12,967 nucleotides of DNA from Bacteroidota bacterium (GTDB taxonomy: Bacteria; Bacteroidota; Bacteroidia; J057): the NCBI GenBank assembly GCA_036835375.1, contig DAITMB010000065.1, positions 14,168-27,134 on the forward strand, written 5' to 3'. Positions 1-12,675 of the stretch are shown one piece after another. The position numbers and the translations under genes were made by a program. Numbering within the stretch: the stretch's first letter is position 1; each line of letters starts with the position of its first letter. Under the pieces are notes generated by a model, which saw nothing but the letters and a program-made list of their open reading frames with translations, made no database searches and was not told the origin of the DNA.

Positions 1-93
1 CACGACACCGCCTTGTCACGAGGCCAGCAAGCCATCATTCTCGAATACGACCCTGTGCAAGATCAATATGTCGTGACTGCATTTGAAGTGTAA
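1..93 (+). CDS. 3' end (31 codons) of an upstream gene that is truncated by the window edge; product unknown
   Basis: Frame 1 is open from position 1 (HDTALSRGQQAIILEYDPVQDQYVVTAFEV) to the TAA at 91-93. Codon usage resembles the neighbouring genes. It is too short to assign a family. Confidence 0.3.
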   Translation, partial: HDTALSRGQQAIILEYDPVQDQYVVTAFEV

Positions 94-272: not shown

Positions 273-2441
273 ATGGACATCATTTCCACCATCGGCATCA
301 TCGTCGGAATCGTGCTGGCGAGCGTCGTCATCGGGTATGTGCTGCTGATTCGTCTTTTCTACCGAAAAATCAATCAGGGACAGGCGCTCGTGCGCACAGG
401 CTATGGCGAGACCAATGTCGCATTTAATGGGATGTGGGTCATTCCGCTGCTTCACAATGCCGAAATCATGGATATTTCGCTGAAGCAGGTCATCATCAAC
501 CGCGACGGCAAGGACGGTTTGATTTGCAGAGACAATCTCCGCGCAGATATCAAAGTGGCGTTTTATGTGCGGGTCAATCCCACGGTCGAAGATGTGAAAA
601 TGGTCGCTAACACCATCGGATGCGCCCGCGCTTCGGACCCCGAGCTGCTCAATGTTCTCTTCGAATCCAAATTTTCCGAGGCTCTCAAGACCGTCGGCAA
701 GCGCTTTGACTTTGTGGAGTTGTACGACGCGCGTGAAAAATTTCGCGACGAAATCATCAACCTCATTGGCCGCCAGCTCAATGGCTATTTTCTCGACGAT
801 GCTGCGATCGATTACTTGGAGCAAACTCCAGTAGAATTCCTCGACGAGGACAACATCCTTGACGCGGAAGGGATCAAAAAAATCCGGGACCTTACCGCCA
901 AGCAGATCACCCTCGCCAACAAGATTCAGCGAGAAAAGGAGAAGGAGATCAAGAAGCAAGACGTAGAGGCACGAGAAGCCATCCTAGAGCTGGAGAAGCA
1001 ACAGGCCGAAAAAGAAGAAGTGCAGCGTCGGGAGGTCTCCTCCGTCAAAGCCCGTGAAGTGGCGGAAACCCAGCGGGTACAAGAAGAAGAGCGCACCAAG
1101 TCGGACCGCGCCCGCATTTCCCGCGAACGAGATATCGAAGTGGAGGAGCAAAACAAGCTACGCGATGTGATTGCTGCCCGCAAGAACAAAGAGCGAACTG
1201 AGGCAATCGAGACCGAGAAGGTCGAGCGAGACAGGGCCTTGGAAGCCACTGAGCGGGAGAGGATTGTGGAGCTGGCCCGGATCGAAAAAGAAAAAGCCCT
1301 CGAAGAAGAGCGCAAAAACATCCAAGACGTGATTCGCGACCGCGTGGCCGTGGAGCGGGAAGTCGTCGAAGAGCAGGAAAAAATCAAAGATACTGAGGCA
1401 TTTAAAGGAGCTGAGCGCTTGAAGCGCGTCGCCATCCTGGCTGCAGAGCAGCGGGCAGAGGAAGCCTTGGTGGAGCGAATTAAGCGAGCCGAAGCGGAGA
1501 AGGATGCCGCAGTCTTGGACGCACAGCGCCGCATCACCGAAGCCAACGCAGGTCGTGAAGCCGCGGACAAGGAAGCTCAATCCAAAAAAATCATGGCGGA
1601 TGCCACTGCCGAAGAGCACGCATCCATCGGCCTGGCAGAAGCTCGCGTCTTGGAAGCCAAGGCCCAGGCACGGGAAAAAGAGGGACAAGCCACCGCCAAT
1701 GCGCTTGAGTTCCAGAACATCGCCGAGGCCAAAGGCATTGAGCTGAAAGGAGAAGCCCAAGCAGAGGCAGACCGCAAAAAAGGCCAGATGGAAGCCAAGA
1801 TTTATCTGGAAAAAGGCATGGCAGAGGCCCAGATTCTTGAAGCACGCGCGCTCGCCACCGAGAAAATGGGGACTTCTGAGGCCAAGGTGATTGAGCTCAA
1901 AGCTCAAGCGGATGCCAAAGGCGTACAAGCCAAGGCAGAGGCCATGAAGAAGCTCGATGGCGTGGGCAAAGACCACGAGGAGTTCAAGCTCCGCCTCGAA
2001 AAGGACAAAGAGGTGGAATTGGCAGGCCTGAACATACAGAAGGACATTGCCGCTGCGCAAGCTCAGGTACTTGCTGAGGCCCTGCGATCTGCCAAGATTG
2101 ACATTGTCGGCGGTGAACAACAATTCTTCGATCGCATCAGCGGAGCGATTCTCCAAGGCAAGTCCGTGGATCGCTTTCTCAACAACAGCGAGCACCTCAT
2201 TGATGTGAAAGAAGCTCTGCTCAACGGAGAAAACGGTCATTTGGGTCCTACTCTTCGCAGCTTCATGCAGCAATTTCGCTTCAGCAGCGAAGACCTCCGC
2301 AACCTCAGCGTCTCCGCCCTCATCGCCAAACTTCTCACTCAAGCTCAGGACGAGAAGCAGCGGTCGGTGCTAGACAGCCTTCAAGCCATGGCCCAATCCC
2401 TTGGATTGGCTGACCAAAAGGCGCACAAGTTCTTGCAATAG
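273..2441 (+). CDS. Membrane-anchored SPFH/band-7 flotillin-like protein (YqiK/FloT family) with an extended coiled coil
   Basis: ATG at 273 (MDIISTIGIIVGIVLASVVIGYVLLIRLFY) opens directly into a hydrophobic transmembrane helix. An SPFH core follows (QGQALVRTGYGETNVAFNGMWVIPLLHNAEIMDISLKQ...IKVAFYVRVNP), then about 400 aa of E/K/R/A/Q-rich coiled coil. The C-terminus has a flotillin-type tail (...LRSAKIDIVGGEQQFFDRISGAIL...). The ORF track extends in frame to 192, but 192-272 is a G-free pyrimidine-rich leader, so 273 is the preferred start. The stop is TAG at 2439-2441. Confidence 0.88.
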   Translation: MDIISTIGIIVGIVLASVVIGYVLLIRLFYRKINQGQALVRTGYGETNVAFNGMWVIPLLHNAEIMDISLKQVIINRDGKDGLICRDNLRADIKVAFYVRVNPTVEDVKMVANTIGCARASDPELLNVLFESKFSEALKTVGKRFDFVELYDAREKFRDEIINLIGRQLNGYFLDDAAIDYLEQTPVEFLDEDNILDAEGIKKIRDLTAKQITLANKIQREKEKEIKKQDVEAREAILELEKQQAEKEEVQRREVSSVKAREVAETQRVQEEERTKSDRARISRERDIEVEEQNKLRDVIAARKNKERTEAIETEKVERDRALEATERERIVELARIEKEKALEEERKNIQDVIRDRVAVEREVVEEQEKIKDTEAFKGAERLKRVAILAAEQRAEEALVERIKRAEAEKDAAVLDAQRRITEANAGREAADKEAQSKKIMADATAEEHASIGLAEARVLEAKAQAREKEGQATANALEFQNIAEAKGIELKGEAQAEADRKKGQMEAKIYLEKGMAEAQILEARALATEKMGTSEAKVIELKAQADAKGVQAKAEAMKKLDGVGKDHEEFKLRLEKDKEVELAGLNIQKDIAAAQAQVLAEALRSAKIDIVGGEQQFFDRISGAILQGKSVDRFLNNSEHLIDVKEALLNGENGHLGPTLRSFMQQFRFSSEDLRNLSVSALIAKLLTQAQDEKQRSVLDSLQAMAQSLGLADQKAHKFLQ

Positions 2442-2489
2442 CAGGCCAGCTCGTTTCCCCGTTTTTTTTCTATCCACATCCCCTCCACC

Positions 2490-5400
2490 ATGGAAGCCAG
2501 TACCTATGAGCTGATCCGGACCCGACTGGAAGCGCAGGCCCAAGACCTGCGCAGTCGGCTGGATCGGCTCCACCAGATCCGAAAGGATACCTTCGGGACC
2601 ATCGAGATGCAGCTGATCGCCACCGATCGCATCACTACCCAAAACCACTGCATCCCACGCGACATGGTCGCCATCGGACACCGGTTTTTGTTTGGGTACA
2701 ATGTCATGATGGGACTTCGTAGTGAAGTGTCGGTCAGCGATGTCTTCGCTGGGTATCGTTTTGAAGTCAGTGACCACAGCTTCCACGGGGAATCGCTGGA
2801 TTTTATGGCAGATTCGCGCTTCCAGGAGGACTTTCAGAATCTCTACAAATACTACAAAGACACTGTATTCGCCCGCTTTGCCATTCGTGGCCCTCATCTT
2901 TTCTTGGTGTTTCAGGTGGGAAAATCCTCCCACGAGATCAAGACCTTCAAATGGGCAATTCAGGACGACCAGTTACTTTACCTCGGCAATCGATTCGATC
3001 ACGAGTATCGATTTCCTGATCAGCATGAGTTTTCCTGGCAAAAGGCAGGTAGAGACCAGTATCGGCGCGGGATGCACCCACACGTCTCCATCCTTGATCG
3101 AGTCTTTGTCGAAACCGTGGGGGGGGATCTCACCATCAAGGTCGAGGACAACACCTCCACCGGGCTGGGCATTTTCAGCGAACCTGTCGAGGATCCTGAC
3201 CAAACCCTCGACGATGCTGAATATTTCTTTGCAGACTTGGGAAATATTCTCCTGCTGAAAATCAGACCTTACCAAGAAAAAACATTCCGCCACTTCATCT
3301 TCAACGAAAAGCTTCAGGAGATCCTTCGTGTGGATTCCCTTGCGACGAGCGCGATCCGTCTGCCCGACGAGCAGGGATTGATTTTTTCGAATGGATATTA
3401 TCTCCACACGGGCGAAAAGAAAATCTTCGATCAGGCTCATGAAGGGCTGCGGTTTGAGCGTCGTGTCGTTTCCCCCAACGGTGAAGACATCCTGTATGTG
3501 TTTTACCAGGCAGCGAGTGGCCAGTATGTGCTCTTGCCTTACAACTTGGTGAAAATGGACGTGGACAGCCCGATTCATTGTGGGGGATTCACCATTTTCC
3601 CCAACGGCGAATTGTGCTATTTCCGGGCGGAAGAACAACCAGGACGGCACCATGTGATTCAAATTTGGCGGACGCCTTATGGTACCGGAGTATCCGAGGT
3701 GGCCCAGAATTCAGGATCCTGGATCGCCAAAGTCGGCAACAAAGACCTCGTACGCGGCATGGCCGAGTGTCAAGGCTTGCTCGTCTTACTAGGAAAAGAA
3801 GAGCCTTACGCAGACTTCTATGTCGATCTGGTAAAAAAAACTGGAGACATCATTGACAGCTACTTTTGGATTGCAAAAGAAGAGGCTGCCAATCTCGCCT
3901 TTGCGCTGCGCAACATCCGTGAAACGGCTGTCTCGGCCATCGACGAATACGAAAAAGTACAGGTCCTCCGCGCCAATACCCGCATGCGCACCGAGGAAGT
4001 GACGGTGGCAAGCCAGCAACTAGCTGAAAAAATTCGCCGCCGAAAGCCGCAACAAATCGTCGATTATGTGGAATATCTGGGCGAACTGCGGAGACTGCGG
4101 GGCGACATCATCGGCCTGCGAGATCTGAGATTTGCTGACGAATCCAGCATTGAGGCGCTTGAGGCCCAAGTCATTGCCCAGACCGAATCCCTCGGCGAAG
4201 CCACGGTCACATTCTTGCTCAGCGAGCAATCCCTCCAGCCCTACCAAGTGCGTGTTGATTCCATCAGCGAGGCCATCGGCACGATCTCCCGTGTGACAGA
4301 AGCTAATGAAGTGGCGCAAGACATAGAGGACAGCGCCAAGCAACTGGAACTGCTCATCGACATTGTGAGCAACCTCAAGATAGAAGATGCGACCCAAACT
4401 ACGCGGATCATTGAGCACATCTCTGTGGTGTTTTCCCGGCTCAATGGTTTACGTGCATCGCTTCGCACGCGGCGGCAGGCGTTGTCCGGGATGGAAGCTA
4501 AGGCTTCTTTTTTTGCCCAGATCAAACTCTTAGATCAAGCTCAGATCAATTATCTCGACCTCTGTGACACCCCGCAAAAGACGGAGGACTACCTCTCCCG
4601 CCTCATGGTACAGGTCGAAGAACTGGAAGGGAAGTTTGCCGAATTCGAAGAGTTTCTGCGCTTGCTTTCCGACAGACGCGAAGATCTCTACGCCGCCTTC
4701 GAGACCCGCCGCCTTCAATTGGTGGAACAAAGAAACAAACGTAGCAGCGCTCTGCTAGCCACTGGTACGCGCATTCTCAAGGGCATTCAGCATCGTGCGG
4801 CGCAGATGGAAGAGCTTCAGGAGATTCATGCCTACTTCGCAGCTGACCTCCTCGTGGAAAAGGTGAGGGGCATCATCGCCGAACTCACGCAGATGGAGGA
4901 CAGTGGCAAGGCAGGCGATCTTCAGGCGCAGCTAAAATCGGCGCGCGAAGAGGCCATTCGCCAGTCAAAAGACCGAAGGGATCTCTATGTCGATGGCGAT
5001 CACACCATTCGGATGGGCAGACACAGTTTTGCGGTCAATCGCCAGGCTCTAGACCTCACCGTTGTGCCCCGTGAGGGAAGCATGTATCTCCACATCACGG
5101 GGACTCATTTTTATGAAAAAATCACCGACGAAGTCTTCCTCCGCACCCAGGCTGTGTGGGGCATGTCGCTGCCATCAGAGAGTGCTGACGTGTATCGAGC
5201 TGAGTTTCTGGCGTGGCAAATGATGCAGGATTTGTCTTTGTCCGCGGCAATCCGACCTCTGCTTCCTGAAGTACAGTCCTTTATGGCGACGCGCTATGAG
5301 GAAGGCTATCTCAAGGGCATTCACGATCATGATGCCAGCGTGCTGTTGGGACATTTGCTAGAACTTCGGGAAGGGCTTGGCTTCCTACAATATAGCCCCG

Positions 5401-7307
5401 AGGCGCGTGCCTGTGCGATCGTTGCATGGTGGAGCGGTTGGGAAGAGGAGGCCAAAAATGCTTTGTCTCTGCGAATCCAGAGTGCAAAACTGGTCTTGCG
5501 GGCCTTCCCCGGGACTTCTCGATTTGAAGCGCTGACTCAATCGTTACATTCCCACCTTGCACAATTCTGTCAAGCATCCGGTGCATTTGATCAGGGCGTG
5601 GCCGCTGAAGCAGCAGCGTTTTTGTTTGCCACCTTACAAGACGAAGGATCCCTGACGGTCTCTGGAGAGGCGGTTGATTTACAAGAAGCTTTTGGGCAAT
5701 ATCTCCGTCAAAACGAGCTCAGCGAAGATTATGAAAAATCTCTGGCAGAATGGCAATCATTGCCACTGGCCCGATTCGACTTGATTCGCACATGGCTGGC
5801 AGCATTTGTCGAGGCAGCAGAAAAGGATACTCCAGCATCCCTCGTGCTGGAAGCAGCTGCTTTGATGCTTCTCGGTACACACGTTCCCACCCAGCGGCTG
5901 GATCTATCTGCACGGCGCACCGTGACAGATCTGCGAGGGGAGCACGGGGTAATCGAAGAGGGAGGACGCTACGAATTGAGTTATCATCGCTTTCAGGCGA
6001 AGCTCGGGCAGTTTGTCCAAGACATTCGTCCGCAGTATTTTCAGATGGCGCAGCTCAAGCACGACCTGATTGCGCGGGAGCGGGAAAGCCTTCGCTTGGA
6101 GAGTTTTCAGCCGAAAATCATGTCCTCTTTTGTTCGGAACAAACTCATCGACCAGTACTACCTGCCCCTTGTGGGTGACAACCTCGCGAAGCAGATCGGG
6201 ACTGTCGGAGAAAACATGCGCACCGACCGCCAGGGCTTGTTACTGCTGATTTCACCGCCGGGCTACGGCAAGACCACGCTCATGGAGTATGTCGCCAACC
6301 GGATGGGGTTGATTTTCATGAAAATCAACGGACCCGCCATTGGCCATGAAGTCACTTCACTTGATCCTGCGAGCGCGCCCCATGCAAGTGCTCGCGAAGA
6401 ACTTCACAAGCTCGCCCTTTCCCTGGAAATGGGCGACAACGTGATGCTCTACCTCGACGACATTCAGCACCTTCACCCAGAATTTCTCCAAAAATTCATC
6501 TCCCTCACCGATGCCCAGCGCAAAATCGAAGGGGTGTATAAAGGTCGGTCTCGCACCTATGACCTTCGTGGAAGGCGGGTGGCCGTGGTCATGGCAGGCA
6601 ATCCCTACACCGAGTCGGGGGATAAATTTCGAATCCCGGACATGCTTGCCAACCGAGCGGACATTTACAATTTGGGGGACATCATCGGTGCGCAGGAGGG
6701 GCTGTTTCGGCTCAGCTATTTGGAAAATGCCCTCACTTCCCATCCATTGCTCACCCGGCTTGTGACCGCATCCAGTTCCGATCAGCACATCATTTTCCGC
6801 GCCGCGGAAAAGGGCGAAGAGCAGGGCCTTGCGCTGGAAGGGAACTTGTCTCCGGAAGAAGTGCAGGATATGCTCGCGGTGTTGCGCAAGATGATCGCTG
6901 TGCGTGAGGTGGTGCTGAAGGTGAATCATGCCTACATCGCTTCCGCTGGGCAGCAGGAGGCATATCGGGTAGAGCCTCCGTTTTTGCTCCAAGGGTCATA
7001 TCGCAATATGGCGCGGTTGACTGAAAAGCTGTCTCCATTGATGAACGACCAGGAGTTGCAAGCGCTTCTCCTCGCACACTACACGAGCGAAGCACAGACC
7101 TTAAGCGCGGGTACAGAGGCCAATCTCCTCCGTTTTCGGCGGATGATCGGGGTGGCTACCCCAGAAGAAAATCAGCGCTGGGAAGACATTCTTCGGATGT
7201 TTGGAGAGCAGAAGCAGCTCAGCATGGATCGATTAGGACAATTGGTGCAGGAAATGAAGTCCTTCACGCAGGGGCTTGCAGCAATCAGCGATGCGTTGAA
7301 AAAGTAG
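2490..7307 (+). CDS. Giant (1605 aa) multidomain protein: N-terminal beta-rich region, long coiled-coil/helical middle, C-terminal AAA_5 (MoxR/dynein-related) AAA+ ATPase domain and lid
   Basis: Single uninterrupted ORF. Walker A is LLLISPPGYGKTTLMEYVA (GYGKTT at nt 6261-6278). Walker B is VMLYLDD (DD at 6456-6461), followed by IQHLHPEFLQKF, which aligns to MoxR 'DEINRAPPKTQSALL'. Sensor 1 and the arginine region are VAVVMAGNPYTESGDKFRIPDMLANRADIY, aligning to MoxR '..[22 protein letters not shown]'. Residues about 460-900 are heptad-like and charged. No protease, VWA (DxSxS) or nuclease motif was recognised. The gene starts 48 bp after the flotillin stop, so the two are probably co-transcribed. 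Confidence 0.85.
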   Translation: MEASTYELIRTRLEAQAQDLRSRLDRLHQIRKDTFGTIEMQLIATDRITTQNHCIPRDMVAIGHRFLFGYNVMMGLRSEVSVSDVFAGYRFEVSDHSFHGESLDFMADSRFQEDFQNLYKYYKDTVFARFAIRGPHLFLVFQVGKSSHEIKTFKWAIQDDQLLYLGNRFDHEYRFPDQHEFSWQKAGRDQYRRGMHPHVSILDRVFVETVGGDLTIKVEDNTSTGLGIFSEPVEDPDQTLDDAEYFFADLGNILLLKIRPYQEKTFRHFIFNEKLQEILRVDSLATSAIRLPDEQGLIFSNGYYLHTGEKKIFDQAHEGLRFERRVVSPNGEDILYVFYQAASGQYVLLPYNLVKMDVDSPIHCGGFTIFPNGELCYFRAEEQPGRHHVIQIWRTPYGTGVSEVAQNSGSWIAKVGNKDLVRGMAECQGLLVLLGKEEPYADFYVDLVKKTGDIIDSYFWIAKEEAANLAFALRNIRETAVSAIDEYEKVQVLRANTRMRTEEVTVASQQLAEKIRRRKPQQIVDYVEYLGELRRLRGDIIGLRDLRFADESSIEALEAQVIAQTESLGEATVTFLLSEQSLQPYQVRVDSISEAIGTISRVTEANEVAQDIEDSAKQLELLIDIVSNLKIEDATQTTRIIEHISVVFSRLNGLRASLRTRRQALSGMEAKASFFAQIKLLDQAQINYLDLCDTPQKTEDYLSRLMVQVEELEGKFAEFEEFLRLLSDRREDLYAAFETRRLQLVEQRNKRSSALLATGTRILKGIQHRAAQMEELQEIHAYFAADLLVEKVRGIIAELTQMEDSGKAGDLQAQLKSAREEAIRQSKDRRDLYVDGDHTIRMGRHSFAVNRQALDLTVVPREGSMYLHITGTHFYEKITDEVFLRTQAVWGMSLPSESADVYRAEFLAWQMMQDLSLSAAIRPLLPEVQSFMATRYEEGYLKGIHDHDASVLLGHLLELREGLGFLQYSPEARACAIVAWWSGWEEEAKNALSLRIQSAKLVLRAFPGTSRFEALTQSLHSHLAQFCQASGAFDQGVAAEAAAFLFATLQDEGSLTVSGEAVDLQEAFGQYLRQNELSEDYEKSLAEWQSLPLARFDLIRTWLAAFVEAAEKDTPASLVLEAAALMLLGTHVPTQRLDLSARRTVTDLRGEHGVIEEGGRYELSYHRFQAKLGQFVQDIRPQYFQMAQLKHDLIARERESLRLESFQPKIMSSFVRNKLIDQYYLPLVGDNLAKQIGTVGENMRTDRQGLLLLISPPGYGKTTLMEYVANRMGLIFMKINGPAIGHEVTSLDPASAPHASAREELHKLALSLEMGDNVMLYLDDIQHLHPEFLQKFISLTDAQRKIEGVYKGRSRTYDLRGRRVAVVMAGNPYTESGDKFRIPDMLANRADIYNLGDIIGAQEGLFRLSYLENALTSHPLLTRLVTASSSDQHIIFRAAEKGEEQGLALEGNLSPEEVQDMLAVLRKMIAVREVVLKVNHAYIASAGQQEAYRVEPPFLLQGSYRNMARLTEKLSPLMNDQELQALLLAHYTSEAQTLSAGTEANLLRFRRMIGVATPEENQRWEDILRMFGEQKQLSMDRLGQLVQEMKSFTQGLAAISDALKK

Positions 7308-7507: not shown

Positions 7508-8584
7508 ATGGCTCTTTACTCTGTGATCATCGGCTCAGGCAGCTACTTGCCTACTCGCATCGTCACCAACGAAGATTTTCTGGCTACTTCATTTTTAGAC
7601 CAAGATGGACAAGGATTTCCTAAGACGGCGGAGGAAATCATCCAACGGTTCGAGGAGATCACTACCATCAAGGCGCGGAGATACGTGGACGACGACCAAC
7701 TTTGTTCAGATATCGCGACGCTGGCTGCTCAACAAGCCATCGCCGATGCTGGCATTGACATGGAGACCATCGGTCACATCATTGTGGCCCATAATTGGGG
7801 CGACATCAAGGTTGACAACAAGCGATCGGATCAGGTGCCATCCATTGCTTCCCGGGTGAAATATAATCTCGGGATGGTGAATCCAGATTGTGTCCCCTAC
7901 GACCTGCCGTTCGGCTGTCCGGGATGGGTGCAGGGGATGATTCACGCCAATTACTTTCTCAAGTCAGGAGACGGCACGCGCGCGCTGGTGATTGGGGCAG
8001 AGACCCTTTCTCGCGTGATAGATCCACATGATCGCGACCAAATGATCTATGCTGATGGGGCTGGGGCGGTGATCCTCGAAGCGCGCGAATCAGATAAGCC
8101 GATCGGGATTGTGGCACACAAGACGCGCTCCGATACCAAGGACCACGCATATTTGTTGTGGCAGGCGAGGTCATTTCAGCCAGACCGCCCCGCAGATGAG
8201 TTGTTCCTGAAGATGAATGGCCATTCTCTCTATAAGTACGCCCTCGCGCACGTGCCTGAGGTGGTCAAGACAACCATCGATATGGCAGGGCTTCAACTGA
8301 AAGACATCAGCAAGGTGCTCATCCATCAAGCCAATGCGAAGATGGACGAGGCCATTCTTACCCGCCTGTTTCGGCTATATGGGGAGACTTCGGTGCCAAA
8401 AGCTCTGATGCCGCTCACGGTGGGGTGGCTGGGAAATAGTTCTGTAGCGACGGTCCCTACTTTGTATGACCTCATCATGAAGGGTCAGCTCCAGGATCAG
8501 CACATTCAGGCGGGAGATTGGATCATCTTTGCGTCGGTAGGTGCCGGGATGAACATCAATTCGATTGTGTACCGGATGCCCTAG
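7508..8584 (+). CDS. 3-oxoacyl-ACP synthase III (FabH/KAS III) family condensing enzyme
   Basis: N-terminus LYSVIIGSGSYLPTRIVTNEDF matches FabH (IIGTGSYLP). The putative catalytic Cys is in PFGCPGWVQGM. IYADGAGAVIL corresponds to FabH IFGDGAGAAVL. The HQAN His and the GNSSVATVP Asn complete a Cys-His-Asn triad. Length is 358 aa. No fab or acp neighbours are present. Confidence 0.82.
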   Translation: MALYSVIIGSGSYLPTRIVTNEDFLATSFLDQDGQGFPKTAEEIIQRFEEITTIKARRYVDDDQLCSDIATLAAQQAIADAGIDMETIGHIIVAHNWGDIKVDNKRSDQVPSIASRVKYNLGMVNPDCVPYDLPFGCPGWVQGMIHANYFLKSGDGTRALVIGAETLSRVIDPHDRDQMIYADGAGAVILEARESDKPIGIVAHKTRSDTKDHAYLLWQARSFQPDRPADELFLKMNGHSLYKYALAHVPEVVKTTIDMAGLQLKDISKVLIHQANAKMDEAILTRLFRLYGETSVPKALMPLTVGWLGNSSVATVPTLYDLIMKGQLQDQHIQAGDWIIFASVGAGMNINSIVYRMP

Positions 8585-9186
8585 GGCTCCATGCCCTTTC
8601 GCTGTTCGCGATACCAGACATTGTATGCTTCGATGATGCGCGGCAGATCCGTCGGCTGAAAGAGGTCGTTGCGGATGGCTTGCGCCAGCTCTGTGTATTC
8701 GTCGAGGGCATCGGCAATGCGCTTCCACTTGAAGTTGTAGCTCACTTCGAAGAGCTTGCCATCGGGTTTTTCCAGCAAATCAAAAAAAGCAGGCCCTTTC
8801 TGTAAAGTGAACTCGGATCTGCGGGTATAAAACCGAAAGAGCTTCACAGGTCCATCAATCTTTCGCTGTAAAAACATCACCGTATCCGACAACAATCCCG
8901 CATAGAGAAAAGGCCGGGGTTTGCTCTCGTAATGGCGATCCTGATAGCCAAAGGCGGAGATTCTCTCGGGGGTGTAGCGACTTTTTACGGCATATTCGTC
9001 ATAAAAAACGATGTGTCGCTGATCCTTGAAGTCATTGCCGCTGCGCACATATCCCCAGGTCGTGTCATTATATTGGGAGACGATGTAGCCACGAGGGTAC
9101 TTGGAAGCTTGGCCAGAAGACGACTGCGGAGTGAAGACGCAGAAGCTCAGGAGCAGGAAAATGGGCAGATATCGGTCCGAATTCAT
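8581..9186 (-). CDS. Hypothetical protein with an N-terminal signal peptide (secreted, periplasmic or lipoprotein-like); function unknown
   Basis: Minus-strand ORF 8581..9231. The preferred start is the internal Met at 9186 (MNSDRYLPIFLLLSFCVFTPQSSSGQ...), which gives a signal-peptide-like N-terminus. The body is rich in Y/F/R/K/D, and no family was recognised. The upstream alternative start at 9231 is possible. Its stop overlaps the FabH-like stop at the CTAG 8581-8584. Confidence 0.55.
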   Translation of the reverse strand: MNSDRYLPIFLLLSFCVFTPQSSSGQASKYPRGYIVSQYNDTTWGYVRSGNDFKDQRHIVFYDEYAVKSRYTPERISAFGYQDRHYESKPRPFLYAGLLSDTVMFLQRKIDGPVKLFRFYTRRSEFTLQKGPAFFDLLEKPDGKLFEVSYNFKWKRIADALDEYTELAQAIRNDLFQPTDLPRIIEAYNVWYREQRKGMEP

Positions 9187-9343
9187 AAGATGAATAATAC
9201 AGCTGCTACAAACATCGGGAATGATTCTCATCCATTTGCGGGCCTTTTCTGTGTTTTTGTGGAGGAAACTTTCATTTAGCTATTAGGGCTTTGACTTCGA
9301 ATGTCGGATCTCTTTTTGTCCCATGCGGGGAGCTGTTCTTCCT

Positions 9344-9439: not shown

Positions 9440-10048
9440 ATGGCCAGACGTCCGCTCAAAAAGCTCGAAAAGATTGTTCTCATAGGATTTGGTTTTTTTG
9501 CCTTGATGATGTTTGGTCTTTGGGTCCTAGACAAGCAGCCCAACCGAGCGTATTTTCTGCCCGAAGGCTTCGATGGCTGGGTGACCATTCGCTACGCTGT
9601 ACCAGGTGCTGATCCGATTCCCAGGGTCAATGGCGTGCTGCAGTATGTGATTTCCGAGAGTGGCTACATGGAAACGAGCGACCCCCTTGTAGTAGGCTGG
9701 CGCAGAGATGAGTTTTTCTGGAAAAGAAATGATGGCTCCATCGAAAAAATAGCCCCCTATGTCAAGCTCGACGATGAATATTATCTCCACGTTCATCAGC
9801 ACGCTTACTTTGCCAAAGACTGGACTTCAATCTTACACAGCATGACCGTGGGCAAAGATACCGTCATGCCAGATCAGACGAAGATTTCTAAAACATCTGA
9901 GTCGGATGTGAAGTATGTGACTGGGAAGAAAACGCTGGAATATTTTTACTTCAGTGATGTGCCTCAGTCCATCATGTTCACTCCTCCCAAAAATCCACAA
10001 ATGGAAGGGCTGGAGTCCACAGAAGATCGCTCCATTGCGCAGGATTGA
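9440..10048 (+). CDS. Hypothetical single-pass membrane-anchored protein; function unknown
   Basis: 202-aa ORF. The N-terminus MARRPLKKLEKIVLIGFGFFALMMFGLWVL has a basic stretch followed by a transmembrane helix. The remainder is soluble (...FLPEGFDGWVTIRYAVPGADPIPRVNG...). A TAAATTTG box lies 65 nt upstream. No recognisable family. Confidence 0.55.
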   Translation: MARRPLKKLEKIVLIGFGFFALMMFGLWVLDKQPNRAYFLPEGFDGWVTIRYAVPGADPIPRVNGVLQYVISESGYMETSDPLVVGWRRDEFFWKRNDGSIEKIAPYVKLDDEYYLHVHQHAYFAKDWTSILHSMTVGKDTVMPDQTKISKTSESDVKYVTGKKTLEYFYFSDVPQSIMFTPPKNPQMEGLESTEDRSIAQD

Positions 10049-10137
10049 TCCGGTCTCATTGCTGATATTCGTCCTCTTGTTGTCCAGATTCTTGTTTTCA
10101 GGTCGTTTTGTTCGGCTCACCTTCATCGTGTCTCCCT

Positions 10138-11325
10138 ATGCAGCATGTGGCTCCTCGCATTGACTTCAGCAATACAGAATTGGCGTTTCAGGCGCAGTCA
10201 CCTGCAAAACTCAGGCGTACGTACTGGCTGTTTCGCATGATCGACTCCCCCATCTTGACCAAGATCGGGCCCAAATTGCTTACATTAGGGTTTCGGATGG
10301 GATTGCCTGTCGAAGGACTGGTGAAAAGCACGCTATTTGACTTGTTTGCGGGTGGTGAATCTTTGCCCGAGACGGTACCACGTTCGGAGCATCTGATGAG
10401 CTATGGGGTGCACACCATCCTAGATTACTCCGTCGAAGGAGAGAAATCCGAGGCCGGATTTGAAGCGACCAAGCGCGAAATCTTAGCTACGCTCGACCAT
10501 GGCGCTGCACAGGAGGCCGTGGCCTTCAGTGCGTGCAAGCTCACCGGGCTGGGGTCTTTTGACATTATGGCGAAAGTTCAGGCAGGGGAAAACCTGAGTC
10601 AGGCGGAGCAGGCATCTTTTGAGCGGCTCAAAGGGCGCATTCGCGAGATTGCCCAAGCAGCCTATGACCGCCAAGTGCCGATTTTTTTGGATGCCGAGGA
10701 AACCTGGATTCAGGATGTGATCGACGCTCAGGCGGAAGAGCTCATGGCAACCTATAACCGGGAAAAACCCATCATTTGGACCACCATCCAGCACTATCGG
10801 CACGACCGATTAACCTATTTGAAATCGCTGATTGATCGGAGCAAATCGCAGGGCTACATCTTAGCAGTGAAGCTGGTGCGTGGCGCTTACCTCGAAAAAG
10901 AGAATCGCCGGGCGGAGGAAAAGGGATATCCTACCCCAATGCAAGCGACCAAAGCCGCGACGGATCGCGACTACGATGCGGGGCTGGCGCTTTGTGTCGA
11001 TCACATGGATCACGTCGCTGTGTGTGCAGGCACTCACAACGAGCGCTCCAGTGCCTTTTTGGCCGAACTTCTCCAGCAAAAAGGTATTCCGGCAAATCAC
11101 CCCCATGTATGGTTCGCTCAATTGCTGGGCATGTCGGACCACATTTCCTTCAACCTCGGCCACGAGGGCTACAATGCCGCGAAATATTTGCCCTATGGTC
11201 CAGTTAAGTCAGTGATGCCGTACCTGATTCGTCGGGCGGAAGAAAACACATCGGTAGCGGGTCAGGCCAGCCGTGAGGTAGAATTATTGCGTCAGGAAGT
11301 GAAGCGGCGCAGTGCGCAGCGGTAG
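10138..11325 (+). CDS. putA: Proline dehydrogenase (monofunctional PRODH, PutA catalytic-domain family)
   Basis: From the Met at 10138 the N-terminus reads MQHVAPRIDFSNTELAFQAQSPAKLRRTYWLFRM, typical of Bacteroidota monofunctional PRODH. Conserved motifs are AVKLVRGAYLEKE and VCAGTHNERS. The ORF track begins at 10108, but the alignment-like N-terminus favours 10138. Confidence 0.82.
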   Translation: MQHVAPRIDFSNTELAFQAQSPAKLRRTYWLFRMIDSPILTKIGPKLLTLGFRMGLPVEGLVKSTLFDLFAGGESLPETVPRSEHLMSYGVHTILDYSVEGEKSEAGFEATKREILATLDHGAAQEAVAFSACKLTGLGSFDIMAKVQAGENLSQAEQASFERLKGRIREIAQAAYDRQVPIFLDAEETWIQDVIDAQAEELMATYNREKPIIWTTIQHYRHDRLTYLKSLIDRSKSQGYILAVKLVRGAYLEKENRRAEEKGYPTPMQATKAATDRDYDAGLALCVDHMDHVAVCAGTHNERSSAFLAELLQQKGIPANHPHVWFAQLLGMSDHISFNLGHEGYNAAKYLPYGPVKSVMPYLIRRAEENTSVAGQASREVELLRQEVKRRSAQR

Positions 11326-11423: not shown

Positions 11424-11813
11424 ATGGACATTCAGCCAAAGAAGTTCAAACAGGAGTACGAAACTACGTTCATCCTCCTTCCCGATATGCCTGAGGGTGA
11501 GCATCAACAGGCAGTTGACAAATTTGTCAAAATGATTCAAGACGCCGGTGGCACGATGCGCAACATCGAGCACTGGGGCATTCGCCAGTTGGCCTACCCG
11601 ATTCAGCGGAAGACCAGCGGATATTATGCTTTCTTAGAATTCGAAGCTGACCCTGAGTTCATCTCCAAGCTAGACCAGGCATATCGCTACGACGAGCAGG
11701 TGATCCGTTTTTTGACGGTGAAGCTGGAAAAGCACGCATTTGAGTTCAATCAAAAGCGTCGCGAGCAAGGCTTTGGTCTCCGCAAGGAAGCCAGGGTACA
11801 AAACATCAAATAG
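11424..11813 (+). CDS. rpsF: 30S ribosomal protein S6
   Basis: [64 protein letters not shown] matches the S6 fold signature (..WG.R.LAYPI..). It is followed by rpsR. Confidence 0.95.
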
Positions 11814-11898
11814 TGAGAGGAGGGAAACAGGCACTGGTGATCGCCGGGCTATAAGTTCCCTTCACACCCATTCTCCAATTTTTTTCAAAGATCCACAC

Positions 11899-12171
11899 AT
11901 GGCCAAGTCTCCCGTAATTGGACCTACCGCGGTCAATAAGATCCGCACCCAGCACCAAGACAAGAAGTACTGCCGCTTTAAAAAAGCTGGCATTAAGTAC
12001 ATTGACTACAAAGATGGTGACTTCCTTCTCAAGTTCGTGAACGAGCAGGGCAAGGTACTTCCTCGCCGCATCACTGGCACCAGCCTGAAATTTCAGCGTA
12101 GGCTTGCCGTAGCGATCAAGCGTGCACGCCACCTCGCATTGTTGCCATTCGTTACCGATGGCTTACGTTAA
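11899..12171 (+). CDS. rpsR: 30S ribosomal protein S18
   Basis: From the ATG at 11899: [85 protein letters not shown]. This is the canonical S18 of the Bacteroidota type. The ORF track starts at 11740, inside rpsF, which is an artefact of the open frame. Confidence 0.93.
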
Positions 12172-12228
12172 TCTGGGCTGATACATCACTTTGCGGCGCG
12201 AGCCGCTCCACGTTCAACTGAGAGAACA

Positions 12229-12675
12229 ATGGAAATCATTCTGAAACAACCGATTCGCAATCTCGGCGACAAAGACGACGTGGTGAAGGTAAAGCCCGGA
12301 TTTGCGCGCAACTACCTGATCCCTCAAGGTCTGGCCGTCATGGCTACTGCCTCTGCTAAGAAGGCTTTGGCAGATACCAAGCGCCAAGCATCTCACAAAG
12401 TAGAATTTGTGAAACAGCAGGCCACAGAAGAAGCTGCCAAGCTCACCGCCGCCAAAATCATCATCGAGACCCTCGCTGGAAATGATGGAAAGCTTTTTGG
12501 CTCTGTCACTACGTTGATGATCGCCACCAAGCTCAAAGAGCAAGGCTTTGACATCGACCGTAAGTCTATCACCATTGAAGATATTCGCTCAACTGGCGAA
12601 TACACTGCGGTGATTCACCTCCACAAAGAGGTCAAAGCAGAAGTGCCCGTAGAAGTGGTGAGCCGCGAGAACTAA
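12229..12675 (+). CDS. rplI: 50S ribosomal protein L9
   Basis: MEIILKQPIRNLGDKDDVVKVKPGFARNYLIPQGLAV...DGKLFGSVTT...TGEYTAVIHLHKEVKAEV matches the L9 N- and C-domain signatures (..V.NLG..GD.V.VK.GYARNFL.PQG.A....GKLFGS). Confidence 0.93.
   Translation: MEIILKQPIRNLGDKDDVVKVKPGFARNYLIPQGLAVMATASAKKALADTKRQASHKVEFVKQQATEEAAKLTAAKIIIETLAGNDGKLFGSVTTLMIATKLKEQGFDIDRKSITIEDIRSTGEYTAVIHLHKEVKAEVPVEVVSREN

Follow-up and report, generated by a model that had tools for sequence, protein, structure and literature searches.

A YqiJ-flotillin-ATPase locus of a Bacteroidota bacterium: gene order, domain map and a possible role in remodelling membrane scaffolds

Why should the gene for a membrane-anchored flotillin be followed, 48 bp later, by the gene for an ATPase of 1605 residues? 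Here we address this question for a 12,967-nucleotide stretch of DNA from a Bacteroidota bacterium (assembly GCA_036835375.1, contig DAITMB010000065.1, positions 14,168 to 27,134 of the forward strand; hereafter the window, meaning the whole of this stretch), in which an earlier note made from the sequence alone had singled out the two genes as a candidate membrane-associated machine. We find that they belong, with a third gene of the YqiJ/NfeD type, to a triad that recurs in many genomes, and that the ATPase is a member of the DUF3686 family with a MoxR-like fold. In our judgement there is about an even chance that the locus represents an 'abbreviated' three-gene membrane module in which the ATPase reshapes a scaffold formed by the flotillin and its YqiJ-like partner during an envelope-stress response, together with PspA in some lineages. 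The operon type itself is already known from comparative genomics, and the window is a further instance to which we add structural detail, not a discovery.

Evidence that the genes work together comes from their arrangement. Within the window two long open reading frames (ORFs) share the plus strand, one at 192-2441 (from a TTG start, with an internal in-frame ATG at 273) and the other at 2490-7307; the public gene call starts the flotillin at the ATG, giving a product of 722 residues, and a terminator scan of the spacer at 2442-2489 returned no site combining a hairpin with a T-run. The pair is thus laid out as the earlier note had described it, and its further claim that the pair is a functional unit, which it said would be weakened if the adjacency were not conserved, has gained considerable support from other genomes. 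A scan of one genome per species yielded 582 confirmed relatives of the ATPase, from which 80 loci were kept, representing Bacteroidota, Planctomycetota, Verrucomicrobiota, Desulfobacterota, Kiritimatiellota and Omnitrophota. In 69 of the 74 loci that could be evaluated (about 93%; 69 of 80 overall), the gene immediately before that of the ATPase, in the same orientation, encodes an orthologue of the window flotillin; six of the 11 flotillin-negative loci had been set aside for too little upstream sequence. Clustering of the neighbouring ORFs showed the flotillin gene to be immediately preceded by a YqiJ-like gene in 54 loci. The triad also surrounds distant members of the family, namely those of a clade only 29-33% identical (L083, L087), of a gammaproteobacterium (L084) and of an acidobacterium (L086), and the order YqiJ-flotillin-ATPase is kept across at least seven phyla. 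Because the flotillin gene is directly upstream in so large a share of loci, and is so even in the clade with about 30% identity, the three genes are, as judged from gene order, functionally linked.

Operons of this kind have been in print since a 2020 preprint and then a 2024 paper (Ravi et al. 2024, mSystems, PMC11237479), which describes a YqiJ/YuaF protein, a band-7-flotillin and a "beta-propeller-coiled-coil-AAA+" protein encoded together and often joined by a CesT/Tir-PspA dyad. In its table, the entry for Dokdonia donghaensis (ANH61663.1) shows the same gene order, including a helix-turn-helix (HTH)-protease regulator, and the paper notes that 'abbreviated operons', comprising the flotillin, YqiJ/YuaF and sometimes the ATPase only, are more widely distributed. 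The window triad has the same domain architectures in the same order, and its locus corresponds to the abbreviated form; the full form, which we recovered in about 20 Bacteroidota loci, carries the CesT/Tir-PspA dyad and an HTH-S24 regulator, whereas neither was found in the 2 kb upstream of the block in a near-identical public contig. Ravi et al. propose chaperone-like roles in membrane dynamics and report no experiments; they assign the ATPase no clade, structure or function and make no link to DUF3686, and that link, the fold and the domain map given below come from the present analysis. Literature searches on DUF3686, PF12458 and flotillin plus MoxR retrieved no relevant paper, one on YqiK with YqiJ retrieved nothing on an ATPase, and no experimental study of the YqiJ-flotillin-ATPase module was found. 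The remark in the earlier note that it knew of no characterised function therefore stands, while its impression that the pairing was new does not. A paper on the bac operon of P. aeruginosa concerns a DUF2170-PspA dyad, does not use the term 'ATPase' in its main text, and was set aside.

The third gene of the triad had escaped the earlier note, which saw no NfeD partner. Its last 30 codons and stop codon occupy the first 93 positions of the window, too short a piece to reveal it, and the encoded C-terminus resembles those of the conserved gene of about 220 codons found upstream of the flotillin in the 54 loci. Apart from nine substitutions, the window is identical to the final 12,967 bases of a public contig (CAZRIA010000109.1, GCA_964600015.1; 15,542 bp; locus L081), in which the gene is complete (2063-2668) and ends 179 bp before the flotillin start codon. 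Its 201-residue product has two hydrophobic segments, at about residues 7-40 and 58-94, which are separated by a short acidic loop, and its C-terminal part is soluble. A profile of 37 orthologues aligned to E. coli YqiJ over nearly its full length (hhalign probability 97%, E = 1.2e-10, 184 columns), and Pfam recognised YqiJ_N in 18 of the 37 and the NfeD C-terminal domain in two. Flotillins have their NfeD-type partners in the YqiJ/YuaF proteins (Hinderhofer et al. 2009, PMC2636767), and in both the YqiJ-YqiK pair of E. coli and the YuaF-FloT pair of B. subtilis (NfeD2-SPFH2; PMC2636767) the gene for a small NfeD-like membrane protein likewise precedes that for the flotillin; E. coli yqiK, unlike the flotillin gene of the window, has no ATPase gene downstream. 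In many YqiJ-like partners (L004, L007, L011 and others) the loop that separates the first hydrophobic segment from the second carries a D-x-D-x-D acidic run, which can reach about 25 residues; the copy of the window organism has only a short version.

The flotillin itself proved to be of the YqiK type, and poorly served by standard annotation. A Kyte-Doolittle scan found one hydrophobic segment, covering residues 1-31, and residues 240-600 consist of 19% E, 18% A, 11% K and 9% R. The full-length protein matched no Pfam family even at E = 10, but its N-terminal 276 residues alone matched PF01145 (Band_7) over residues 32-239 (E = 1.4e-11; 45.2 bits against a cut-off of 23.6), which suggests that the coiled-coil composition masks the domain in the full-length search. 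Because the SPFH domain is missed in this way, the association of flotillin and ATPase is invisible to domain-based screens of gene neighbourhoods. Precomputed Pfam annotation in public collections reads '-' for most of these flotillin genes (in the window and in L081, L083, L084 and L086). The earlier description of a membrane-anchored SPFH protein with a long coiled coil is upheld; a Flot domain, also called there, is not, as PF15975 matched neither the full-length protein nor its middle or C-terminal fragments, and the NCBIfam FloT equivalog scored 15.5 bits against a cut-off of 700. The proposed kinship with YqiK is confirmed by BLASTP (30% identity over 451 residues, residues 2-444, E = 3e-45) and by a profile of 28 orthologues, which hhalign aligned to YqiK with E = 9.7e-42 over residues 13-428 only. 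Compared with E. coli YqiK (553 residues), the helical region is longer and the last 290 or so residues cannot be aligned. Since the alignment stops at residue 428, with no Flot domain and no Pfam match beyond it, the protein is, on sequence comparison, a flotillin of the YqiK type whose helical region is expanded and whose C-terminus is specific to its lineage.

Both ends of this protein are conserved among the loci. The SPFH domain has a mean pairwise identity of 64.5% (47 loci), and the C-terminal region at residues 601-722, for which no significant Pfam match was found, is 38-61% identical in the flotillin-carrying loci by tblastn, with invariant residues that include G613, G614, F618, D633 and S639. 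We regard this region as a candidate docking surface. Searches of PDB sequences with the full-length flotillin returned no match, and a profile search of the PDB gave only a weak match to QmcA.

For the ATPase, the earlier note had read about 480 beta-rich residues, about 700 helical ones and a C-terminal AAA_5 module, a layout that Pfam and AlphaFold show to be essentially right. The N-terminal region is DUF3686 (PF12458; residues 19-459, E = 1.6e-180, 600.9 bits, model positions 1-448 of 448), a family with more than 4000 homologues of the same architecture and with 742 representative clusters, and it is followed by DUF7902 (residues 581-663, E = 5e-26). AlphaFold models built from 49-sequence alignments (mean pLDDT, the predicted local distance difference test, 84.7 and 82.4) show a conserved N-terminal helix (residues 2-35) and then a propeller, most 10-residue blocks of which average 80-94; in Foldseek this region matches the clathrin terminal domain, WD40 and other propellers with E of about 1e-5 to 1e-3. 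The middle domain (residues 838-1165), for which neither Pfam nor PDB gave a sequence match, has conserved motifs that include H868/G871/T872, Y902-R903 and Y940/K942/G943/H945/D948. A Foldseek search with a 1200-residue model returned only generic propeller and helical matches, among them the clathrin terminal domain, Elp1, nucleoporins and WD40 proteins, at E of about 1e-5 with a query template modelling (TM) score of at most 0.13; we do not take them as a sign of kinship with coat proteins.

The AAA+ core folds in the model as a Rossmann-type alpha/beta domain from about residue 1250, with Walker A S-P-P-G-Y-G-K-T at residues 1255-1262 and Walker B L-Y-L-D-D at 1320-1324. Across several phyla Walker A, D1323-D1324 (window 6456-6461; compared in 12 sequences), N1371 and R1389 are invariant, so that the nucleotide-binding residues of this soluble protein are intact; from their positions in the model, N1371 is a candidate sensor 1 and R1389 a candidate arginine finger. 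Conservation within the protein is uneven, with mean pairwise identities of 78% in the core, 56% in the propeller, 50% in the arm and 35% in the middle domain; over its full length the protein is about 50% identical between phyla. Weak AAA, AAA_5, AAA_22 and RuvB_N matches fall at residues 1241-1374, those to AAA and AAA_5 exceeding their cut-offs, and the nearest solved folds are the MoxR ATPases NorQ and CbbQ. The inserts that mark the MoxR clade are one in helix 2 and a beta-hairpin ahead of sensor 1; the model places a beta-hairpin at its residues 245-258 (1345-1358 of the protein), after Walker B and before sensor 1, and predicts none after strand 2. The MoxR assignment, which the earlier note had also made, is supported by the predicted fold more than by sequence.

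This domain content bears on a reading promoted by database names, namely that the protein is a DNA repair ATPase, related to SMC, SbcC and Rad50 or to RuvB, with a flotillin gene beside it by chance. The PF12458 description speaks of an 'ATPase involved in DNA repair', NCBI names homologues 'DNA repair ATPase', weak RuvB_N and RuvB matches surround the P-loop, and a LexA/cI-like regulator with HTH and S24 domains adjoins the Bacteroidota operons. Yet the RuvB matches span only about 45-100 residues around Walker A, with RuvB models scoring 19-21 bits over about 45 residues against cut-offs of 282-299, and domain searches of the ATPase gave no match to SMC, Rad50, SbcC or RecN and no ABC-type head, nuclease or DNA-binding domain. 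The best fold matches are MoxR ATPases, every conserved neighbour encodes a membrane or envelope-stress protein, and no paper was found that backs the name. We therefore hold this reading to be extremely improbable; the database name is unsupported, and we rejected the reading on domain content.

Within the MoxR class the protein is itself unusual. MoxR proteins are stand-alone, with lengths of about 250-500 residues, whereas here the same chain also holds about 1200 residues of propeller, arm and middle domain; sequence similarity to them is marginal, and the Walker B of the window ATPase ends in D-D. The systems NorQ-NorD, CbbQ-CbbO and RavA-ViaA each include a partner with a VWA domain, but no VWA gene belongs to the conserved neighbourhood of the present module. 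As the earlier note had stated, no protease or VWA partner emerges: neither these nor a defence gene is conserved near the module in the neighbour clustering or evident in domain searches of the window. Neither the SbcC/SMC family nor a MoxR-VWA system, which the earlier note had given as examples of placements that would weaken its inference, accommodates it.

Comparison with known SPFH systems suggests what such a protein might do next to a flotillin. In the HflK/C-FtsH and prohibitin-m-AAA pairs an SPFH-family scaffold is likewise paired, by genetics or by physical contact, with an AAA+ enzyme at the membrane. Enzymes of the FtsH type, however, have an M41 protease and a membrane anchor, whereas the window ATPase has no Peptidase_M41 match, no hydrophobic segment in its 1605 residues by the Kyte-Doolittle scan, and is not of this type. 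Its SPFH companion differs from HflK/C and prohibitin in being of the flotillin type, with an NfeD partner and a probable orientation towards the cytoplasm, to which the single N-terminal anchor points. The module as a whole is membrane-associated, as first proposed. In the reading that we prefer, flotillin and YqiJ would assemble, as other SPFH-NfeD pairs do, into an oligomeric scaffold that covers the inner membrane on its cytoplasmic side, and the ATPase, like other MoxR ATPases, would be ring-shaped. Its arms, tipped by propellers, would engage the flotillin/YqiJ assembly and so take the place of the separate VWA adaptor of MoxR systems, and ATP would drive assembly, disassembly or reshaping of the scaffold as part of an envelope-stress response, acting in some lineages together with PspA. 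For B. subtilis, an SPFH protein is reported to link PspA to the membrane (PMC8581546).

A hint that the scaffold is the substrate comes from a pattern of co-divergence. With the other four ATPase domains controlled for, divergence of the propeller follows divergence of the flotillin domains with a partial r of 0.37-0.52 (permutation p = 0.001), and partial r does not exceed 0.16 for the other ATPase domains; common ancestry and similar rates of evolution can raise such values. Together with the shared flotillin C-terminal region that YqiK lacks, this hints, at the level of sequence, that the flotillin itself is the partner of the ATPase. An alternative is that flotillin and YqiJ merely recruit or corral the ATPase within a membrane microdomain, with no protease involved, and that its MoxR-like motor would mature, extract or disassemble other membrane clients with the propeller as client adaptor. 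MoxR ATPases are chaperone-like remodellers of unrelated client enzymes, the nearest solved folds here are MoxR ATPases, and SPFH cages enclosing AAA+ enzymes, as HflK/C does FtsH, are an established theme. On the other side, the propeller co-diverges with the flotillin, the ATPase lacks a membrane segment, and no candidate client gene is conserved beside the triad, the genes downstream of the ATPase differing from locus to locus. We consider such a client-directed role possible but rather unlikely.

Several observations weigh against a scaffold-reshaping role for the ATPase. For the substrate, gene order and the co-divergence statistic are the sole guides; five loci with ample upstream sequence (L001, L002, L005, L034 and L045) have no adjacent flotillin gene; the Walker B motif carries D-D in place of the usual D-E, leaving hydrolysis rates uncertain; the 1200-residue model has a predicted TM-score of 0.48, so that its domain arrangement is unreliable; and a PspA gene is absent from the 2 kb upstream in the public contig.

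The last of these points touches the place of PspA in the system. In 20 Bacteroidota loci genes for a PspA_IM30 protein (E = 4e-41) and a CesT/Tir-like chaperone (CesT_Tir_1, E = 4e-54) lie immediately upstream of the block, and in one further Bacteroidota locus PspA lies downstream instead, so that of the neighbours the earlier note had asked about, the NfeD-type gene (54 loci) and PspA (21 Bacteroidota loci) do co-occur with the pair and conserved defence genes do not. Upstream of the CesT-PspA block, 19 Bacteroidota loci carry a divergent regulator with HTH_3 and Peptidase_S24 domains, LexA/cI-like and of the self-cleaving type (for example L009 3932-4729, minus strand); this divergently transcribed regulator suggests that the CesT-PspA-YqiJ-flotillin-ATPase block is switched on by repressor cleavage. 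In the gammaproteobacterial locus, of Agaribacterium, DUF2170 and PspA genes adjoin the triad, and in the divergent clade TelA-family genes (toxic anion resistance, PF05816) flank it (L083 12989-14227, L087 2970-4097), a further neighbour connected with membrane stress.

These linkages invite the reading that the ATPase acts mainly on PspA, a bacterial member of the ESCRT-III superfamily, disassembling or remodelling its polymers as Vps4 does while flotillin and YqiJ serve as membrane platform. A 2025 review finds a Vps4-like ATPase apparently absent from bacteria, regards the control of PspA polymerisation as open and the roles of band-7 partners as undetermined, and Ravi et al. (PMC11237479) draw the ESCRT analogy for other pairs of PspA and AAA+ proteins. 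PspA is adjacent, however, in just 21 of the 80 loci, all from Bacteroidota, against flotillin in about 93% of the evaluable ones, and it is missing upstream of the window locus. The fold is MoxR-like, so that the AAA+ clade differs from the classical one of Vps4, and no MIT-type domain was detected in the ATPase; the parallel with Vps4 and ESCRT-III is one of function only. A motor devoted chiefly to PspA seems to us unlikely.

A bolder form of the scaffold-reshaping proposal would make the DUF3686 protein a dedicated, ATP-driven and ring-forming MoxR-class remodeller, with long arms tipped by propellers, that opens, closes or recycles flotillin assemblies and, where PspA is present, PspA/ESCRT-III polymers. 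We put this forward tentatively and think it doubtful; if true, bacterial flotillin microdomains would have in it their first known energy-consuming regulator, and bacteria a functional equivalent of the 'missing' Vps4. Short of that, a strongly conserved giant ATPase that is almost always encoded after a flotillin is a testable candidate for an energy-dependent regulator, and it bears on two unsettled points, the function of bacterial flotillins and the control of flotillin and PspA assemblies. The present analysis contributes the link to DUF3686, the MoxR-like fold, the domain map and the synteny numbers, and it shows that in standard annotation the SPFH domain goes unseen and the ATPase is mislabelled.

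The earlier note had also entertained a defence-type module. In such a system a membrane-anchored sensor or effector and a large AAA+ protein would act against phage, by abortive infection or in a comparable way. Large AAA+ or STAND-like ATPases and membrane effectors are common in defence islands, PspA bears the historical name 'phage shock', and AbiJ-like and deaminase genes lie a few kb downstream at L084. Against PADLOC-DB 2.0, though, the flotillin gave no match and the best match of the ATPase was mad8 at E = 0.019, with no stretch passing alone; the genes neighbouring the pair in the window encode a FabH-like protein, proline dehydrogenase and ribosomal proteins, and neighbours beyond the triad are not conserved. 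Identities of 78% in the AAA+ core and about 50% in the whole protein across phyla are also atypical of fast-evolving defence genes. On the PADLOC result and this conservation we reject the defence reading, which has very little chance of being correct.

The coordinates of the module, its domains and the genes downstream are collected in Table 1.

Table 1. Features of the window, with positions counted from its first nucleotide and residue numbers referring to the encoded protein.
Feature	Positions	Strand	Basis or remark
YqiJ/NfeD2-type membrane protein gene, 3' end (last 30 codons and stop)	1-93	+	near-identical public contig, translation, profile comparison
Flotillin-family SPFH protein, 722 residues, YqiK-like over about residues 13-428	273-2441	+	in 69 loci an orthologue directly precedes the DUF3686 gene
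N-terminal hydrophobic membrane anchor of the flotillin, residues 1-31	273-365	+	Kyte-Doolittle scan, maximum 2.81 over 19-residue windows
SPFH/Band_7 domain, residues 32-239	366-989	+	PF01145, E = 1.4e-11, N-terminal fragment
E/A/K/R-rich helical (coiled-coil-type) region, residues 240-600, longer than in E. coli YqiK	990-2072	+	composition
Conserved C-terminal region of the flotillin, residues 601-722	2073-2438	+	tblastn conservation; outside the YqiK alignment
Intergenic spacer, 48 bp, without terminator-like hairpin	2442-2489		terminator scan
DUF3686-family protein, 1605 residues: beta-propeller, helical arm, MoxR-like AAA+	2490-7307	+	Pfam, AlphaFold models
Beta-propeller, residues 41-394, about seven four-stranded blades, DUF3686 core with preceding helix	2610-3671	+	AlphaFold (mean pLDDT 84.7), Foldseek, PF12458
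Long helical arm, residues 411-830, helices up to 58 residues; includes DUF7902 (4230-4478)	3720-4979	+	Pfam, AlphaFold
Middle domain, residues 838-1165: small beta-sheet (839-877), then all-alpha (903-1128)	5001-5984	+	AlphaFold
AAA+ ATPase core, residues 1240-1420	6207-6749	+	motifs, model
C-terminal helical region (lid and extension), residues 1421-1605, with invariant E-P-P-F-x-L-Q-G-S-Y-R (1495-1505)	6750-7304	+	alignment, model
FabH-like ketoacyl synthase	7508-8584		downstream of ATPase gene
216-residue ORF, no family given	8581-9231	-	downstream of ATPase gene
DUF6843 protein	9440-10048		downstream of ATPase gene
Proline dehydrogenase	10108-11325		downstream of ATPase gene
rpsF-rpsR-rplI	11424-12675		downstream of ATPase gene

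The window genes between 7508 and 12675 are unrelated to the module, and in other genomes none of them is conserved beside it; scans of the window for Rfam families and tRNAs gave no match. Upstream in the public contig a YceI-family gene (L081 706-1248) precedes the YqiJ-like gene by about 800 bp, and the 223-residue protein encoded between the two has no Pfam family on record. The single-base differences between window and public contig fall at window positions 959, 986, 1394, 1436, 4388, 6090, 6257, 7329 and 9281, the two being identical elsewhere.

Among the other loci, wide gaps between the flotillin and ATPase genes are filled by small genes, for example of the PDDEXK_3 or DUF559 type, that break up a pair which is otherwise tightly spaced. 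Such nuclease-like genes, PD-(D/E)XK (PDDEXK_3) or DUF559, were seen between or beside the pair at L036 (9501-9920) and L019 (9521-9943), and also at L079, L026 and L033. At L085 (8001-11123) a solitary protein of 1040 residues has DUF3686 and DUF7902 without the AAA+ module or a nearby flotillin, with an integrase gene a few kb downstream, and may be a truncated or decaying copy. A homologue with 50% identity also occurs in EukProt as a gene model of the dinoflagellate Durusdinium trenchii (P0111, which has no locus); at this level of identity with proteins of bacteria, contamination by bacterial DNA or a recent transfer is the probable origin, and a record of this type may lie behind the statement in Pfam that the family is found in bacteria and eukaryotes.

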